A DNA stretch of 64,000 nucleotides from Nannocystis pusilla (GTDB taxonomy: Bacteria > Myxococcota_A > Polyangia > Nannocystales > Nannocystaceae). The stretch lies in assembly GCF_051105105.1 (NCBI RefSeq), contig NZ_CP185339.1; one strand, 5' to 3'. The notes under the pieces are model-generated. The model did not search any database. It had not been told where the DNA came from and was given only the letters and a program-made list of their open reading frames with translations. Both the position numbers and the translations under genes were made by a program. Each line of letters begins with the position of its first letter. Positions within the stretch are counted from its first letter, which is position 1. Positions 9,338-58,874 of the stretch are shown here, piece by piece.

Positions 9338-9370
9338 GTCGGTTCGCGAATTGCCGACTGCGCCTCGCGG

Positions 9371-9472
9371 GGGGTCCGGGGAAGGTCCGGCCGCGAGTTA
9401 ACCGACCCGATGGGCGCTCGTGCCTCGCACCCATCGGGTCTCTAATTCGCGGCCGGCCCTTCCCCGGACCCC
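9371..9472. repeat. Long imperfect inverted repeat (~44-bp arms) forming a ~100-nt hairpin
   Basis: Left arm ggggtccggggaaggtccggccgcgagttaaccgacccgatggg. Right arm cccatcgggtctctaattcgcggccggcccttccccggacccc. Identical blocks GGGGTCCGGGGAAGG and GACCCGATGGG. Confidence 0.7.
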
Positions 9473-9555
9473 TGGCACGGCTGCAGCCGTGAGAGGCCGC
9501 CTCGCCGTCGTCGGCTCCGATGGCGGGTGTCTTTTGGGGCATGTCACGGGGCGCC

Positions 9556-9600
9556 TGTTCGGCGGCCAGGGCTGGCCGCCGAACAGACGCTTTCTCGCGT
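9556..9600 (+). terminator. Perfect 15-bp-stem hairpin (CTGTTCGGCGGCCAG ggc CTGGCCGCCGAACAG) followed by CTTTCTC
   Basis: Seen directly. Lies about 280 nt downstream of the nearest plus-strand stop, so it may terminate an unannotated transcript. Confidence 0.45.
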
Positions 9601-10004
9601 CCTTAACGGCGTGGCATCTCCGCGCGGGGAGGGCTGGCGATCGTCGACAGCGAGGTCGCCGACAGGGAGGCCGCCGTCGCCCGTCCCTGTCCGGCCTGCG
9701 CGGCCGCATGACGCGAGACCGCGAGGGGCGCGAGGCGTCGAGCATGTGTGGCCCCGTCGGCCTCCGCCTGTTCACGGGCGGAGCTGCGCGCGTCGATGAA
9801 CGGTGAGCGAGACGTTTACGAGGCTGCGACCCGCTGCGGGCGCTCCTCGTCGAGTCGGACGATGGCCGGCGGTTTGATGCAATGAGGGGCCGCATGTCGC
9901 CGATTCATCGCCGCGCGACACGGCGCTTCGAGCGGCGGGGTAGGCCATGCCTCCAGCGCCGCTCGCTCGCGGAGGGATACGCGCGGAGGCGTTGAGCCTG
10001 GCGA

Positions 10005-32396: not shown

Positions 32397-33338
32397 ATGA
32401 CCGTCAGTAAGCCCCACCTCGTCGTCGTCGGCAGCGTCGCCATCGACTGGATCATCACGCCCCGCGCCGAGCGGCCCGAGAGCGTCGGCGGGTCGGCGAC
32501 CTTCTTCGCGATGGCGGCGTCGTACCTGTCCCAGGTGCGGCTGGTCGGCGTGGTCGGGCGCGACTTCCCCGACTACGCGGTGGCCGACCTCAAGGCGGCC
32601 GGCGTCGACACGTCCGGCCTCGAGATCGTGCAGGACGGGCTGACCTTCCGCTGGAAGGGCCAGTACCACGAGAACATGAACGACCGGACGACGCTCGAGA
32701 CGCACCTCAACGTGTTCGAGAAGTTCCAGCCGCGCCTGCCGGACGAGTTCCGCGGCAGCGAGTTCCTGTTCCTGGCCAACATCCAGCCGCGCCTGCAGAG
32801 CGACGTGTTCGCGCAGATGCAGCGGCCGCGCCTGGTCGGCCTCGACACGATGAACCTGTGGATCTCGATCGCCAACGACGACCTCAAGGCGGTGCTCAAG
32901 AACGTGGACGTGCTGACCCTCAACGACGAGGAGGCCCGCCAGCTCAGCGGCGAGCACAACATCGTGAAGGCGGCCCGCGCGGTCCGGGCCCTCGGCCCCC
33001 GCAACGTGGTGATCAAGCGCGGCGAGTACGGGGCGCTGCTGTTCGACGCGGACGGCGAGGTGTTCTCGGCGCCGGCGCTGCCGCTCGAAGACGTGGTCGA
33101 CCCGACCGGCGCCGGCGACAGCTTCGCGGGCGGCTTCATGGGCTATCTGGCCCGCCCCGGGGTGGAGACGAGCGGGGCGTCGCTGCGCACGGCGATGATC
33201 TACGGGTCGGTGATGGCTTCGTTCTGCGTCGAGGGGTTCTCGTACGACCGGCTGAAGGGGCTCGATGCGGCGACGATCCAGAAGCGCTTCGAGACGTTCG
33301 CTGCGCTGACGAACTTTGCTCGGGCCAGCTTGACCTGA
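32397..33338 (+). CDS. PfkB-family carbohydrate/nucleoside kinase
   Basis: 313 aa. N-terminal VVVGSVAIDWI and the C-terminal DPTGAGDSFAGGF anion-hole motif of ribokinase-like kinases. Confidence 0.8.
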   Translation: MTVSKPHLVVVGSVAIDWIITPRAERPESVGGSATFFAMAASYLSQVRLVGVVGRDFPDYAVADLKAAGVDTSGLEIVQDGLTFRWKGQYHENMNDRTTLETHLNVFEKFQPRLPDEFRGSEFLFLANIQPRLQSDVFAQMQRPRLVGLDTMNLWISIANDDLKAVLKNVDVLTLNDEEARQLSGEHNIVKAARAVRALGPRNVVIKRGEYGALLFDADGEVFSAPALPLEDVVDPTGAGDSFAGGFMGYLARPGVETSGASLRTAMIYGSVMASFCVEGFSYDRLKGLDAATIQKRFETFAALTNFARASLT

Positions 33339-33394
33339 GCCGGGGCGCCGCCCACCGCGAGCAGCGTGAGCAGGCTGTGCCTGTCACCCGCTGC

Positions 33395-33500
33395 CGAAGA
33401 TGCGGCGGCCGCATGCGTGTCCTCGCGGTCGTCTCCGACCCCGACGCCATCGCCCGCATCCTGCACGGCGCCGGGTTCCTCCTGCGCCCGCCCTTCGTCC
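33395..33500 (+). pseudogene. Possible 3'-terminal remnant of an IS transposase gene (C..CGGRMRVLAVVSDPDAIARILH..G motif)
   Basis: Frame of track ORF 32858..33811 reads CRRCGGRMRVLAVVSDPDAIARILHGAGFLLRPP. I recall this as similar to conserved C-terminal tails of some IS-family transposases. There is no upstream catalytic domain. Low confidence. Confidence 0.3.
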
Positions 33501-33807
33501 TCGCTGCCCATCTCGGGCCGATGGCCGGGCGCTTCGTCATGCTTGCGTTTCTCCTTGCGGCCAGGACTCTGCCAAATCCTCCCGTCCGCGCGCTGCACTG
33601 CGCGCTGCTCACCGGGCCGCGCCGTACTCGCCCTCGCGCCCGAAATTCTCGCTTCTCAGGCACTGGACCCGGCGCGGGAAGTACGGCATCAAACTTCTTG
33701 AGCGCAGGGCAAGACGGACCGGTTCACCTTCAAGTGACCCACGCAGGCAGCCGGGACCGGCATGCCGGTTCCGGCCCCAAAACAGACGTTGAAGAGGGCA
33801 GAATAAG

Positions 33808-34377
33808 ATGAATATCGATCAAATGCTCGAGGCGGCAGTTCACGTCAATGAACTGCAAAGATTTCAAAACTATTATCTGATCAATTTTTACGGCGATCAT
33901 ATCGGATGGCCTATGCGAGTGCCGGCCGACTATAGTGATGGCTACTGCAGCATACGGGCAGAATCGGGCGAATGGGCGAGAGATGATCCGCGCTTCCAAT
34001 GGCATTTCAACGATGCGCAAGGCCCGCATCGGGTCCCGAGTTATCCAGAGTTCGAGGCTGTGACGATTGTATGCCGGTTCAAGGCTGTCTTCGCATTCCA
34101 GGATGATGCGATTACCACCGACATTGATTTTCCATTTTATAGAGTAAAGGGGCATTCTGGCTTGAATTCCGCGTTCGAGGATCGCGCCAATTTCGGGCTT
34201 GTGCCGGTCGAGGGAAAGAAATGGTTCAATATGATCTCCTTGGCGACTTTCAACGGATCGCCCACATTTATCAGTTGTGGGCCCAGGAATGGGCCGAGCG
34301 TCTGGGCTGAGCCGGAATCATGGGCCCACAAAGGTATCAGCGACCTGCGATGGCTCGCCGTTCCCGCGACGGGATAG
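33808..34377 (+). CDS. Hypothetical protein in a low-GC islet (orphan-like)
   Basis: 189 aa. Visibly AT-richer codon usage (aatatcgatcaaatgctc..., ttttacggcgatcat). No recognisable family. Confidence 0.5.
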   Translation: MNIDQMLEAAVHVNELQRFQNYYLINFYGDHIGWPMRVPADYSDGYCSIRAESGEWARDDPRFQWHFNDAQGPHRVPSYPEFEAVTIVCRFKAVFAFQDDAITTDIDFPFYRVKGHSGLNSAFEDRANFGLVPVEGKKWFNMISLATFNGSPTFISCGPRNGPSVWAEPESWAHKGISDLRWLAVPATG

Positions 34378-34634
34378 ATCTGCGCGCCCACATCCGCCCG
34401 AGCCCAGGTGCTTGATCCCCGGGTTTGATGGCGCAGTCTTCTCACAGGCATGGAGGGACGCGCCATGGGCCAGGTGCTTCACGGCTGCGCCACCACGACG
34501 GAGGCGATCCGTCGAGCGATACAGCATCGTCAAGCGAGCCTGAGGACGCCGGCCAAACGCGACGGGATCGCTGCTACCGCTAGATGACTGTCTCCATGCC
34601 CTCCAGCCGACCATCCCGCACCTGACCCGGGGAC

Positions 34635-34693
34635 GTCGGCGTCGATGCGACGGCCAGGGCGGGCCGTCGCATCGACGCCTTCTTTCGAGCTTT
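34635..34693 (+). terminator. Perfect 18-bp-stem hairpin GGCGTCGATGCGACGGCC-agggcg-GGCCGTCGCATCGACGCC followed by TTCTTTCGAGCTTTC
   Basis: Seen directly at 34635-34676, with a T-rich tail. Lies downstream of a short ORF fragment (MGQVLHGCATTTEAIRRAIQHRQASLRTPAKRDGIAATAR, 34457-34579). Confidence 0.6.
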
Positions 34694-34862
34694 CGGCGCG
34701 GCCTGGTTGGCGGCGAACTCCAGGGCGCGCGGGCGCGAGCGCGTGGGACGGGTCCGCAGAACGCTGTGTCCTCGCGTCGCGGCGGGGAGACGTGCGCAGC
34801 ATCAACCTTCATCGTTGCCGGATCTGCGACCTGTCGCATATTCGATGCGCCTGGAGAATCTC

Positions 34863-35030
34863 ATGACCGACACCACGATCGCGTTGAGCGGCCTCTCGTG
34901 CACAATCCCCTATGTTCGGAATTGCGAGGTCGATCACGACGATCAGGACGACCACGACGATGACGACGACCAGGACGAAAACGACGACCTCGACGATGAT
35001 GACGATGACGGCTTCGGGCCGCAGTACTGA
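34863..35030 (+). CDS. Small Cys-containing peptide with extreme poly-Asp/Glu C-terminal tail (55 aa), hypothetical
   Basis: MTDTTIALSGLSCTIPYVRNCEVDHDDQDDHDDDDDQDENDDLDDDDDDGFGPQY. GGAGAA lies 7 nt upstream. An alternative start 6 codons earlier is MRLENL. Within track ORF 34707..35030. Confidence 0.35.
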   Translation: MTDTTIALSGLSCTIPYVRNCEVDHDDQDDHDDDDDQDENDDLDDDDDDGFGPQY

Positions 35031-35042
35031 GCGGGGCCGCAG

Positions 35043-35336
35043 GTGGGCGTGCCCGCGGGCGACAAGCACGAGGCCAACGGGGTCGCCTGGTACTTCAGCG
35101 GCGATTGGTCGTGGGGCTTCGCGCTCGCAGGCGACGAGGTGAATCGTACGGAATGCGACACTGCTGAGGACCACTCGAAGCTGCGCCTGTGTCGGCACAC
35201 CATCGGTACCCAGCTCGATAACGGCTGGCGCTGTGGCGCGGACACGTCCCTCGACGATTCGTTCGAGTTCGAGCGGTGGGTCTTCGCGGCCGATGGACGA
35301 GGGGGCAAGAACGACATGGCCCCGCAGACAGGTTGA
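35043..35336 (+). CDS. Small Trp/Cys-containing hypothetical protein (GTG start), 12 nt after the acidic peptide stop
   Basis: Track ORF of 97 aa (GVAWYFSGDWSWGFALAGDEV...CRHTIGTQLDNGWRCG). No family recognised. Confidence 0.3.
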   Translation: MGVPAGDKHEANGVAWYFSGDWSWGFALAGDEVNRTECDTAEDHSKLRLCRHTIGTQLDNGWRCGADTSLDDSFEFERWVFAADGRGGKNDMAPQTG

Positions 35337-35337
35337 C

Positions 35338-36321
35338 TCAGGACCGCGAGCGCGCGGCCGGGGGCCGGAGGGCGGCGACGACGAGGGCGCGGAAGAACTG
35401 CGCGCCGGGGTCGGCGTCGGTGCGCGCGTGCCAGTGCAGCGCGAGCGGGAAGTCGACGATCTCGAGCGGGGCGGCGACGGTGCGCAGGGGGAGGCGGCGG
35501 CTGACCTCGGCGGCGAAGCGGCGCGGGAGGCCGGTCATCCAGTCGGTGCGCGAGACGGCGACCGCGGCGGCCATGAAGTGCGGGACGGTGAGGACGACGC
35601 GGCGGCGCAGGCCGGCGCGGGCGAGGTTGTCGCGGGCGACGCGGTGGCCGTGGCCGCCCTCGCCGAGGATCTGCACGTCGACGTAGGGGGTGGCCTCGAA
35701 GGCGGCGCGGTCGAGGCGACGGCCGACCTTGCGGTTGTCGCGGCGGACGACGAGGACGCCCTGTTCGCTGTAGAGCGGGGTCTGGCGCAGGCCGGGGGCC
35801 GTGACCGCGGCGGGGGCGAGGGCGAGGTCGACGAGGCCGGCGGCGAGGCCGTCGCTGGCGATCAGCCGCTCGACCGTGACGACCTGCAGGGAGGCGCGAG
35901 GGAGCTGGCGTTCGAAGCGGGCGACGATCCGCGGCAGGTCGGAGACCTCCTGGTTGTCGGTGAGGGCGATGGAGAAGCGGCGGGTGGTGGTGGCAGGGTC
36001 GAACTCGCGGCCAGCGGCGAGGGCGGCCCGCAGCTCGTGCAGGCCGGCGGCGATCCGCGGCTGCAGCTGGACCGCCACCGGCGTCGGCGCCAGGCCGCGG
36101 CCCCGCCGAACCACGAGCGGGTCGCCGACGACCTCGCGCAGCCGCGCGAGGGCGTTCGAGACCGCCGACTGGGTGACGTGCAGGCGCCGCGCCGCCGCGG
36201 TGGCGCTGCCCTCGGTGAGCACTGCGTCGAGGACGAGGAACAGGTTGAGGTCGATCGCTGCGAGATCCACGAGTATCACCGCTGGTGATGGATACGATGA
36301 GGGAATATCACTGGTCGTCAT
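35338..36321 (-). CDS. LysR-family transcriptional regulator
   Basis: N-terminal HTH (IDLNLFLVLDAVLTEGSATAAARRLHVTQSAVSNALARLRE) plus a LysR substrate-binding domain. Divergent from the NTF2-like gene. Confidence 0.85.
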   Translation of the reverse strand: MTTSDIPSSYPSPAVILVDLAAIDLNLFLVLDAVLTEGSATAAARRLHVTQSAVSNALARLREVVGDPLVVRRGRGLAPTPVAVQLQPRIAAGLHELRAALAAGREFDPATTTRRFSIALTDNQEVSDLPRIVARFERQLPRASLQVVTVERLIASDGLAAGLVDLALAPAAVTAPGLRQTPLYSEQGVLVVRRDNRKVGRRLDRAAFEATPYVDVQILGEGGHGHRVARDNLARAGLRRRVVLTVPHFMAAAVAVSRTDWMTGLPRRFAAEVSRRLPLRTVAAPLEIVDFPLALHWHARTDADPGAQFFRALVVAALRPPAARSRS

Positions 36322-57317: not shown

Positions 57318-57872
57318 TCAGGGGGCCGCCCAGGTGCAGGGGTCGGGCGTGGTCTCGCCGCCGGCGTCGGGATCGGCGGGCAGGTCGAGGGAGACGACGA
57401 GGCGGTCCTGCAGCTTGATCGCTCCGGCCAGCGCCTTGTACGGGGCGATGCCCCACTGGGAGGGCACGAGCGTGAAGTCGGCGCGCAGGCGGTCGCCCTC
57501 GACGCGGACCGGGGCGCGCACCGGAGCTGTCCTTCCGAGCATGACCAATCGGCCATCCAGGATCCCGCCGGGGGTGAGCGCCCCGGTGAAGGTGACCTCC
57601 GGGTGCTGCGCGGTCAGCAGGATCTCGTCGGTGATGTTGCGCTGGATCTTGGCCTTGTCGCCGGCGCCGAGGCCGTCGACGTCGACGCGCCCGTCCTTGC
57701 CGACGACGCCGTCGACCTTCAGCGTGGCCGGCCAGAAGCGACCGCTGAGCGCGGTGCCTTCGCGGCGGATCTCGAAGCGACCCAGCGACAGCCGGAGATC
57801 GTGGGCGAGCCGCGCGAGCAGGCCGTCCTTGAACGTGAAGACGTGGATCGTGCCTTTGTCCTGCGTGTTCAT
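57318..57872 (-). CDS. YceI-like family protein
   Basis: Start MNTQDKGTIHVFTFKDG in track ORF 57318..58199. 184 aa with a YceI-like beta-barrel pattern (FTGALTPGGILDGRLVMLGRTAPV). Confidence 0.7.
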   Translation of the reverse strand: MNTQDKGTIHVFTFKDGLLARLAHDLRLSLGRFEIRREGTALSGRFWPATLKVDGVVGKDGRVDVDGLGAGDKAKIQRNITDEILLTAQHPEVTFTGALTPGGILDGRLVMLGRTAPVRAPVRVEGDRLRADFTLVPSQWGIAPYKALAGAIKLQDRLVVSLDLPADPDAGGETTPDPCTWAAP

Positions 57873-58183
57873 GGGAATTCCCGGTCCGTTGCCTGCGTTG
57901 CCAGTCCGTCGCCGGCGGGCGGCGGGTCGAGGACGGCCACCGCGAGAGCAGCCAATTCCACATTGCGGATGTGGATGTAGGGGCGCATCGTCGCTTCGAG
58001 CGTGCTGTGACGGGCTAGCTTCTGCAAGGCCAGCGGAGGCACACCGACCTGCGCGGCGAGCTTCAGGGCGGTGTGTCGGTGCATGTGAGGGGCCTTGGGC
58101 GCAACACCCGCCTCCCGCTGGATGGCATCGACCCGGGTGGCGTCTCCGCGAGCTCGACCCCGAAGCGGCCCACCCGCGGACAT
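57869..58183 (-). pseudogene. 3' fragment of a tyrosine recombinase/phage-integrase gene (catalytic H-x-x-R ... Y box only)
   Basis: Track ORF of 104 aa. PHMHRHTALKLAAQVGVPPLALQKLARHSTLEATMRPYIHI is the integrase C-terminal catalytic region (HxxR, catalytic Tyr). No N-terminal or core domain upstream. It abuts the YceI start. Confidence 0.6.
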
Positions 58184-58265
58184 CCCGTGGCGGCGTCATC
58201 TCGACCGGACGCCCGGCGGCTCGGGGGGCGGCGTCTCGTCCATGCTCCCAGGTTTTAAAGCTCCG

Positions 58266-58874
58266 TTACCCGCTCTTCTCCCGCGAGGGATGAGCCCCGA
58301 CGCCGAACTGGTACCCGAACGCTGCGATGTCGGCCGCGTAGATCTCTTCGACGATCGACCTGGTCTCGTCTTCGTAATAGTCAGTGTAGAATTTGTGTTC
58401 AGTCTTGAAGACATGCGGCAACTGTCTGGCCCCGATCTGAAGATGTGAGCAGATCCTGGCGAAGTCGCTCTGAAGCGCCTCGAAGCGGCCGATGAAATCG
58501 ACGGCGATCGTTCCCCCGACGCTCAGGCGTGTCACCTGCGGCGACAACGCGTCTTCTAGCCACAGTGCCGAGGATGACAGCCTGACCCCGTTCTTCAGCC
58601 GTCGTAGCATCTCGGAGAAGTCATAGTCGAACAGACGCTGATGATCTCTGCTCCAGAAGTACCTGGACACCAACCAGTCCCATGGATTGCGGACGAACGC
58701 GAACTTGTAGTACGTGCGAAACCTGTCGGGGAAATTTTCGCTGTAGAAGGCCGCCGTCGCGTGTTTCAGATCCACGTCCCTTCGATCGGCCGCAGCATCG
58801 AAGACCTTTTCGATGCTGGTTCCCCCCGTCTTGTTGATATGGATAAAGATGAATTTGTGAGCATCGGAGATCAT
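58266..58874 (-). CDS. Sulfotransferase family protein (PAPS-dependent; 5'-PSB-like KTGGTS and 3'-PB-like RNPWDWLVSRY motifs)
   Basis: 202 aa starting MISDAHKFIFIHINKTGGTSIEKVF. GC visibly lower (~55%) than surrounding genes. Confidence 0.7.
   Translation of the reverse strand: MISDAHKFIFIHINKTGGTSIEKVFDAAADRRDVDLKHATAAFYSENFPDRFRTYYKFAFVRNPWDWLVSRYFWSRDHQRLFDYDFSEMLRRLKNGVRLSSSALWLEDALSPQVTRLSVGGTIAVDFIGRFEALQSDFARICSHLQIGARQLPHVFKTEHKFYTDYYEDETRSIVEEIYAADIAAFGYQFGVGAHPSREKSG

Follow-up and report, generated by a model that had tools for sequence, protein, structure and literature searches.

Between a PfkB-family sugar kinase gene and a LysR-family regulator gene of Nannocystis pusilla, the GC content falls over a segment of about 2 kb that holds pieces of transposase genes, an orphan gene, a perfect hairpin and a short open reading frame (ORF) for an Asp/Glu-rich peptide. 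The question raised by this locus is whether the segment is a single acquired islet or a composite, and whether the acidic peptide is a gene product in its own right. We analysed the segment within a 64,000-nucleotide (nt) stretch of contig NZ_CP185339.1 (the window). All the features listed in a preliminary description of this DNA were present at their positions (Table 1). Comparison with related loci indicated that the spacer between the two genes is very probably the residue of at least three events: the gain of a structured repeat together with a gene for a protein of about 215 amino acids (aa), the death of that gene, and the import of a block flanked by fragments of insertion sequences (IS).

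PfkB and LysR are convergent neighbours. Across five Nannocystis genomes PfkB is 89-98% identical, with similarity stopping at 33338-33353, and LysR is 83-98% identical. By scanning species-representative genomes with LysR, we obtained five Nannocystis loci (L004-L008). The spacer is about 85 nt long and empty in N. punicea (L007) and N. radixulma (L008), and the segment inserted in the window is missing from both. In Nannocystis sp. RBIL2 (L004) the spacer measures 1.16 kb and holds a structured repeat and an intact 216-aa gene. Unrelated genes fill it in N. exedens DSM 71 (about 3.8 kb, L006 10970-14790; a large ORF with a weak AAA_16 match) and in N. pusilla Na p29 (about 7 kb, L005 10990-17990; a second LysR-family gene and a HEAT-repeat protein). 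With lengths of 1.2 to 7 kb in the pusilla/exedens clade, the spacer appears to be a strain-variable insertion site in that clade, and it should be useful as a clear site of this kind when Nannocystis genomes are compared.

The acidic peptide is encoded by a 55-aa ORF. Its acidic tail comprises 32 residues, with Asp/Glu at 62.5% overall and 77% in a 26-residue core, and not 34 residues at about 85% as first described. The small Trp/Cys-rich ORF that had been placed 12 nt downstream is a 97-aa ORF that shares the frame of the first; its product is 100% identical to a hypothetical protein of Nannocystis pusilla. When the intervening TGA was read through, the two ORFs joined as '...DDDDDGFGPQY*AGPQVGVPAGD|KHEANGVAWYF...'. 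The stop falls at the Trp of the relatives' 'LYW'; ten residues that open a domain follow, and the sequence then jumps to the second half of that domain.

Intact versions of the gene were found beside LysR in other strains. In RBIL2 a gene for 216 aa abuts LysR (L004:11028-11675(-)) and encodes MNFTTIALSGLLCTIPYLQNCEV, an Asp/His linker and the full domain; a further N. pusilla assembly, GCA_049337375, has an undamaged allele for 215 aa (P0186) directly beside LysR (L009:4001-4648(+)). The intact protein starts with a short, signal-like hydrophobic segment, from which a hypervariable Asp/His linker leads to a six-cysteine domain of 155 aa. From an alignment of the window copy with these intact alleles (A8), we read five lesions in the window copy: a TGG to TGA change at 35028-35030, at the conserved Trp before the domain; an in-frame deletion of 195 nt (65 codons) at 35063|35064, which removes three of the six cysteines; a deletion of 4 codons (12 bp); an Arg in place of the invariant Trp in the motif CWH (CRH); and loss of the original stop codon, which is read through. 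The complete domain, with six cysteines and the invariant GW, WY, CD, R.CWH and G.R.G, is present in the L004 and L009 alleles; in the window copy, three of the six cysteines remain, CWH is CRH and 65 residues are gone.

On L003, a related contig from a metagenome, an acidic ORF of 53 aa is accompanied by a 115-aa ORF homologous to the 97-aa one (61% identity) and by an almost unchanged end of LysR. L003 has the same first TGA, plus a second Trp-to-TGA change, a different, frameshifting deletion of 148 nt and a changed invariant ANG motif (VDE). The ratio of nonsynonymous to synonymous substitution rates (dN/dS) was 0.28-0.36 when the two intact alleles were compared with each other and 0.44-0.84 in pairs with a dead copy; for the adjoining LysR it was 0.11-0.20, with a synonymous divergence (dS) of 0.09. 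Because intact syntenic alleles exist, the window copy carries these lesions and dN/dS is raised in pairs with a broken copy, we read the 55-aa and 97-aa ORFs as the two halves of a pseudogene.

Divergence from L003 was uneven along the window. The stretch 34650-35336 (the dead gene and its upstream spacer) is 12-22% diverged, whereas the part of LysR at 35338-35753 is only 3.4% diverged (dS 0.084). The contrast could reflect relaxed constraint plus lost pressure on the GC content at third codon positions (GC3), or an exchange of divergent alleles at this site.

Elsewhere in their genomes, N. punicea, N. radixulma and Na p29 have paralogues that share the N-terminus and whose linkers differ greatly in length and composition; none was found in the fetched PfkB-LysR loci. 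Because the linkers of these paralogues vary so greatly, the poly-acidic tract is best read as a hypervariable low-complexity linker. None of the roles proposed for the acidic peptide (unusual precursor, effector, antitoxin or chaperone-like polyanion) was borne out, as the intact homologues in L004 and L009 show this peptide to be the N-terminus and linker of a protein of about 215 aa. Among the options offered, 'non-coding' came closest to the truth, the ORF being the 5' fragment of a broken gene. Nor did we find a stand-alone acidic small protein or a precursor of the type of ribosomally synthesised and post-translationally modified peptides with a dedicated partner: the relatives are one fusion of about 200-216 aa, and the neighbours are PfkB, IS debris and LysR. 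Matches of the acidic peptide to the Asp/His-rich loops of ZrgA, ZnuA and NOA36 (Pfam/NCBIfam) were insignificant and were rejected as compositional. A striking small ORF such as one for an extreme poly-Asp peptide can thus come from gene decay, and intact alleles of sister strains resolve such cases.

The left part of the spacer is a block of about 1.25 kb with a different distribution. Two Logan contigs (L001/L002) share it at 87% identity from 33384 to the contig ends at 34535/34537, and blastn gave no match to it in the five reference genomes L004-L008. In L001/L002 the left neighbour of the block is a PcrB-like gene, not PfkB, and homology to the window begins abruptly at 33384; the layout is likewise an ISCR tail, then the 189-aa gene, then an IS481 head. 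Because of this other left neighbour and the abrupt start of homology, the block 33384-34630 is a unit found in at least two contexts. At L001 31-732 (-) and 1080-1325 (+), where the block adjoins the PcrB-like gene, the ISCR remnant is about 100 nt longer than in the window. The block has thus been cut back independently at different sites.

The IS fragments at the two ends of the block could be assigned to families. At its left end, CRRCGGRMRVLAVVSDPDAIARILH (about 33389-33465) matched the C-terminus of the NCBIfam model ISCR_clade_Ia (NF052416) at profile positions 447-484 of 509 (E=1e-3), and the longer L001 copy matched positions 442-501 of 509 (E=3.8e-7); both scores are far under the whole-protein cut-off, as expected of a fragment. 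This tail is 36% identical over 65 aa to the ISCR regions of thousands of plasmids, including enterobacterial ones. Its frame has a GC3 of 0.9 as far as about 33500, after which the bias is lost, and this pattern fits a short coding remnant. Like members of the IS91/ISCR family, the tail at 33389-33470 contains the CxxC of their zinc-binding C-terminal region and aligns to the last approximately 60 positions of the clade Ia model; unlike them, it is a tail only, without the HUH or Y2 catalytic region and without a complete ORF, and so a remnant rather than an element. The HUH motif and the two catalytic tyrosines of a protein of about 400-500 aa were not found, since the matched positions are about 442-501 of 509 and the sequence upstream is PfkB or unrelated. 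At the right end, tblastn aligned 34465-34584 with annotated N-termini of IS481 transposases at 83-86% identity over 35 aa. The similarity covers the N-terminal helix-turn-helix (MGQVLHG.ATTTEA.RRAIQ); the window copy differs from the family in being cut after 40 codons, with the DDE domain and the right end missing. Its ORF stops after 45 aa with the repeat hairpin downstream, so that no DDE domain was found; terminal inverted repeats were not searched for. The transposase-like tail and the short helix-turn-helix fragment of the preliminary description were thereby both identified. Its view of a horizontally acquired or decayed mobile islet held as well, given the absence of the segment from the N. 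punicea and N. radixulma spacers, the remnants of two IS families and the presence of the low-GC gene elsewhere in L001/L002. A literature search on Nannocystis insertion sequences returned nothing relevant.

The 189-aa orphan ORF between the two IS fragments accounts for the deep drop in GC. The window has a mean GC content of 71.6% (0.716; standard deviation 0.038 across 570-nt windows), and the minimum, 0.521 in the 570-nt window at 33701, is about 5 standard deviations below that mean. Between 33700 and 34300 the GC content goes down to 0.49-0.52. The dip is limited to the 189-aa ORF; the adjoining blocks are mildly low (0.64-0.69). The AT-richer codons of this ORF were evident in its GC3 of 0.59, compared with 0.97 in PfkB and 0.94 in LysR. 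Relative to L001, dN/dS was 0.21 in the 189-aa frame and 0.93 in the frame of an antisense 141-aa ORF. Because of this difference, the ORF is most probably a genuine gene on which purifying selection acts, with a foreign base composition. Of 5.8 billion proteins searched, one alone is homologous: P0001 (90% identity), which sits on the two short Logan contigs. The 189-aa protein had no match in Pfam, NCBIfam, PHROG or PADLOC, and none by PDB profile search, by tblastn against plasmids and phages or in a scan of viral contigs; its AlphaFold2 model was unusable (predicted local distance difference test score 34). That it works as the founding gene of an entirely new family, moving between Nannocystis genomes as cargo beside IS91/ISCR and IS481 with a definable new role, for example in defence, immunity or toxin-related, is a reading to which we give a low probability. 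Much less likely than this orphan-cargo reading is a second one, in which translation of the Asp/His-rich 55-aa fragment persists and its product would now serve as a small metal-binding or polyanionic peptide.

The hairpin lies between the block and the dead gene. As described, it is perfectly palindromic: sequence and fold gave arms at 34638-34655/34662-34679, forming 18 perfect pairs (14 of them G-C) around a 6-nt loop, followed by the T-rich tail TTCTTTCG. A GC-rich stem-loop directly before a U-tract is the mark of an intrinsic (Rho-independent) terminator, and the hairpin, which shows this arrangement, may act as one; its 18-bp stem is much longer than usual. The suggestion that the hairpin sequence might be an IS terminal repeat was not upheld: no second copy of an arm with <=2 mismatches occurs in the window, and the repeat to which the hairpin belongs is unrelated to the IS fragments. 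RBIL2 (L004), Na p29 (L005) and L009 are homologous to the window from 34631-34634 onwards, shortly before the hairpin, which in those sequences forms the 3' stem of a dispersed repeat of about 270 nt. In RBIL2 and Na p29 the repeat begins about 25 nt past the PfkB stop; the L009 copy is upstream of the intact gene for about 215 aa, and PfkB is outside the fetched stretch. At the window locus, the block stands in place of the first approximately 220 nt of the repeat. The window holds only two copies in 64 kb, one of them truncated; the complete one lies 71 nt past the stop of another gene.

The repeat folds into a long hairpin of about 105 nt and the terminal hairpin (-194 kcal/mol, z=-10.9). 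Between the terminal stems of the two window copies (9551-9590 and 34638-34679), four pairs show compensatory double changes, which argues that the terminal stem itself is maintained. No Rfam family was found over the window at the gathering score; E-value matches on the repeat were to generic microRNA-hairpin models on both strands and were rejected. A metagenome scan with a 19-mer from the repeat returned one match (L010), an unrelated chance similarity. The position of the repeat just past stop codons in convergent spacers (window 9349, L004, L005) resembles that of intergenic repeats such as repetitive extragenic palindromes (REP) and miniature inverted-repeat transposable elements (MITE); it differs from known structured repeats in its additional hairpin of about 105 nt and in having no Rfam family. 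The repeat could be a MITE/REP-like element or a small RNA with its terminator, and as a by-product of this analysis it may be of interest as a mobile or regulatory RNA/DNA element. In L003, homology to the window begins exactly at the right arm of the hairpin; within L003 1-40 the preceding 22 nt differ and form an 8-bp hairpin of their own (CCAGATCC GTGA GGATCTGG), at which the contig ends. This suggests that another repeat or IS was inserted at the hairpin loop in L003.

A history of the locus can be proposed from these comparisons. PfkB and LysR would originally have been about 85 nt apart. An ancestor would then have gained the structured repeat, with its terminator-like hairpin end, together with the gene for about 215 aa. 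Death of this gene would have begun with the change of TGG to TGA at the Trp before the domain, which is common to L003; the deletions would have come later and separately from those of L003, here with the in-frame loss of the first half of the domain (195 bp), followed by the 12-bp deletion and the losses of the invariant Trp and of the stop codon. Finally, the block of about 1.25 kb from elsewhere would have replaced the 5' part of the repeat (about 220 nt) and left the hairpin, probably by IS-mediated recombination or deletion and plausibly through IS481 copies. The locus is an ordinary strain-variable junkyard with one possibly functional orphan gene. Its importance beyond annotation is slight; the orphan gene, the domain family without a model and the structured repeat are worth recording.

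Several observations weigh against this account of decay and import. In the 5' fragment, the ATG and a GGAGA resembling a Shine-Dalgarno sequence are conserved and undamaged, and a 55-aa product might therefore still arise. Although the 3' fragment is 21% diverged from L003, no indel interrupts its open frame of 90 codons, and its first half has a dN/dS of 0.34, which leaves room for residual constraint. L001/L002 are short contigs; the ISCR assignment is a short C-terminal match; and the 64-kb window shows no intact copy of IS91 or IS481, which weakens the proposed IS-mediated mechanism.

The first of these points are also what would be expected if the 55-aa and 97-aa ORFs were a functional two-gene module born by fission, with a modified or secreted poly-Asp peptide and its partner, an antitoxin and toxin, or a chaperone-like pair; both ORFs and the intervening stop are present in L003 too, with the ribosome-binding site of the first ORF and the low dN/dS of the first half of the second as further support. 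However, the start of the 97-aa ORF is not kept (GTG here, GCG in L003, where another start lies inside extra sequence), and the fragment is without three of the six conserved cysteines and the N-terminal strands of the fold. Different invariant residues have been lost in each copy (CWH to CRH here, ANG to VDE in L003), L003 has further and different lesions, overall dN/dS is 0.6-0.84, and no gene for a modifying enzyme or a transporter adjoins. We consider such a module very unlikely.

Delivery of the whole 2-kb segment at once, as a single recent islet brought with its cargo by an IS91/ISCR-type rolling-circle element, would agree with the transposase tail at the left edge and with a GC content that stays below the genome mean throughout, and ISCR elements are known to mobilise DNA that lies next to them. 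However, the right part (the repeat hairpin and the gene for about 215 aa) is found without the left block in RBIL2 and GCA_049337375, and the left block without the right part in L001/L002. Because each is found without the other, the two parts have separate histories. Moreover, no more than about 30-60 codons of the transposase are left. A single delivery therefore seems highly improbable. Finally, read-through of the TGA at 35028-35030, or its recoding as selenocysteine or Trp to give one 156-aa protein with a shortened domain, has next to no probability: the fragments share a frame here and the deletion is a multiple of three, but in L003 the parts are in different frames with a second TGA, the intact relatives have Trp (TGG) at this position and not Cys or selenocysteine, the deleted 65 residues hold three conserved cysteines and five secondary-structure elements of a confident model, and Rfam gave no selenocysteine insertion sequence (SECIS) at the gathering score, although no search aimed at SECIS-like elements was made. 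We therefore retain the reading of a composite spacer left by at least three events.

Table 1. Features of the PfkB-LysR spacer, its flanks and the copies of the structured repeat (window coordinates unless a locus is named)
Feature	Coordinates	Strand	Basis
PfkB-family sugar kinase gene, left flank, core genome	32397..33338	+	Pfam PfkB E=1e-35
Putatively imported mosaic block, ~1.25 kb (IS91/ISCR tail, 189-aa gene, IS481 head)	33384..34630	+	homology with L001/L002
C-terminal remnant of IS91/ISCR-family (HUH-Y2, rolling-circle) transposase gene	33389..33500	+	NCBIfam ISCR_clade_Ia
Orphan gene, 189 aa, low GC, probably functional	33808..34377	+	GC 0.525, dN/dS
First 40 codons of IS481-family transposase (helix-turn-helix), truncated	34465..34587	+	tblastn
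Surviving 3' end of ~270-nt dispersed repeat, hairpin and T-rich tail	34631..34702	+	homology with L004, L005, L009
5' fragment of putative dead gene (signal-like N-terminus and Asp/His-rich linker)	34863..35030	+	alignment A8, intact copies L004, P0186/L009
3' fragment of putative dead gene (domain start GPQVGVPAGD fused to C-terminal half)	35043..35336	+	alignment with intact copies
LysR-family regulator gene, right flank, core genome	35338..36321	-	Pfam HTH_1 and LysR_substrate
Complete second copy of ~270-nt repeat	9349..9615	+	81-82% identical to L004, L005, L009 copies
Other repeat copy, L004	12116-11845	-	
Other repeat copy, L005	17964-17695	-	
Other repeat copy, L009	3563-3829	+	

The domain broken in the window belongs to a large family. 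Employing both small proteins in an exhaustive profile search, we obtained 859 clusters at E<=1e-3 (clusters at 50% identity; P0004-P0262). In these, the 97-aa ORF matches only the C-terminal approximately 80 residues of a domain of about 155 aa, and the residues after the TGA correspond to its first 10. The full domain opens with 'LYW.GPQ.(D/N)VP..DLVGW..CF', has six conserved cysteines and follows the pattern GPQ...GW..C...C.G..LMLACR...ANG.GWYF..SWGF...CD...RLCWHT...G.RCG...ER. It is mostly a C-terminal or repeated module and is found alongside cysteine-rich acidic repeats (DUF4215/TIGR02232), thrombospondin type 3 repeats, MopE motifs or PEP-CTERM. Neither Pfam nor NCBIfam has a model for this unnamed six-cysteine 'GPQ...CWH...RCG' extracellular domain, and its wide distribution (about 860 clusters) is a further by-product of the analysis. 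A subset of members lacks both the third and the sixth cysteine, a joint loss suggesting that these two form a disulfide. Some members have a classical signal peptide (P0153) and others have PEP-CTERM anchors. Because of these signals and the putative disulfide, the intact protein of about 215 aa is predicted to be extracellular and is probably secreted. AlphaFold2 gave a confident model of the domain, for which solved TLDc domains were the only structural neighbours, and weak ones; Foldseek of the model against PDB gave no match.

Exact-sequence look-ups of the window ORFs and of P0002 returned no match; the gene calls of the source genome are apparently outside the index. A second low-GC patch (0.56-0.60) was observed elsewhere in the window. 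It contains a 202-aa ORF at 58266-58874 (-), whose N-terminus FIFIHINKTGGTS is sulfotransferase-like by eye, and an adjoining short ORF at 57869-58183 (-) that resembles the C-terminus of a tyrosine recombinase. The patch at 57869-58874 may be another small acquired islet.

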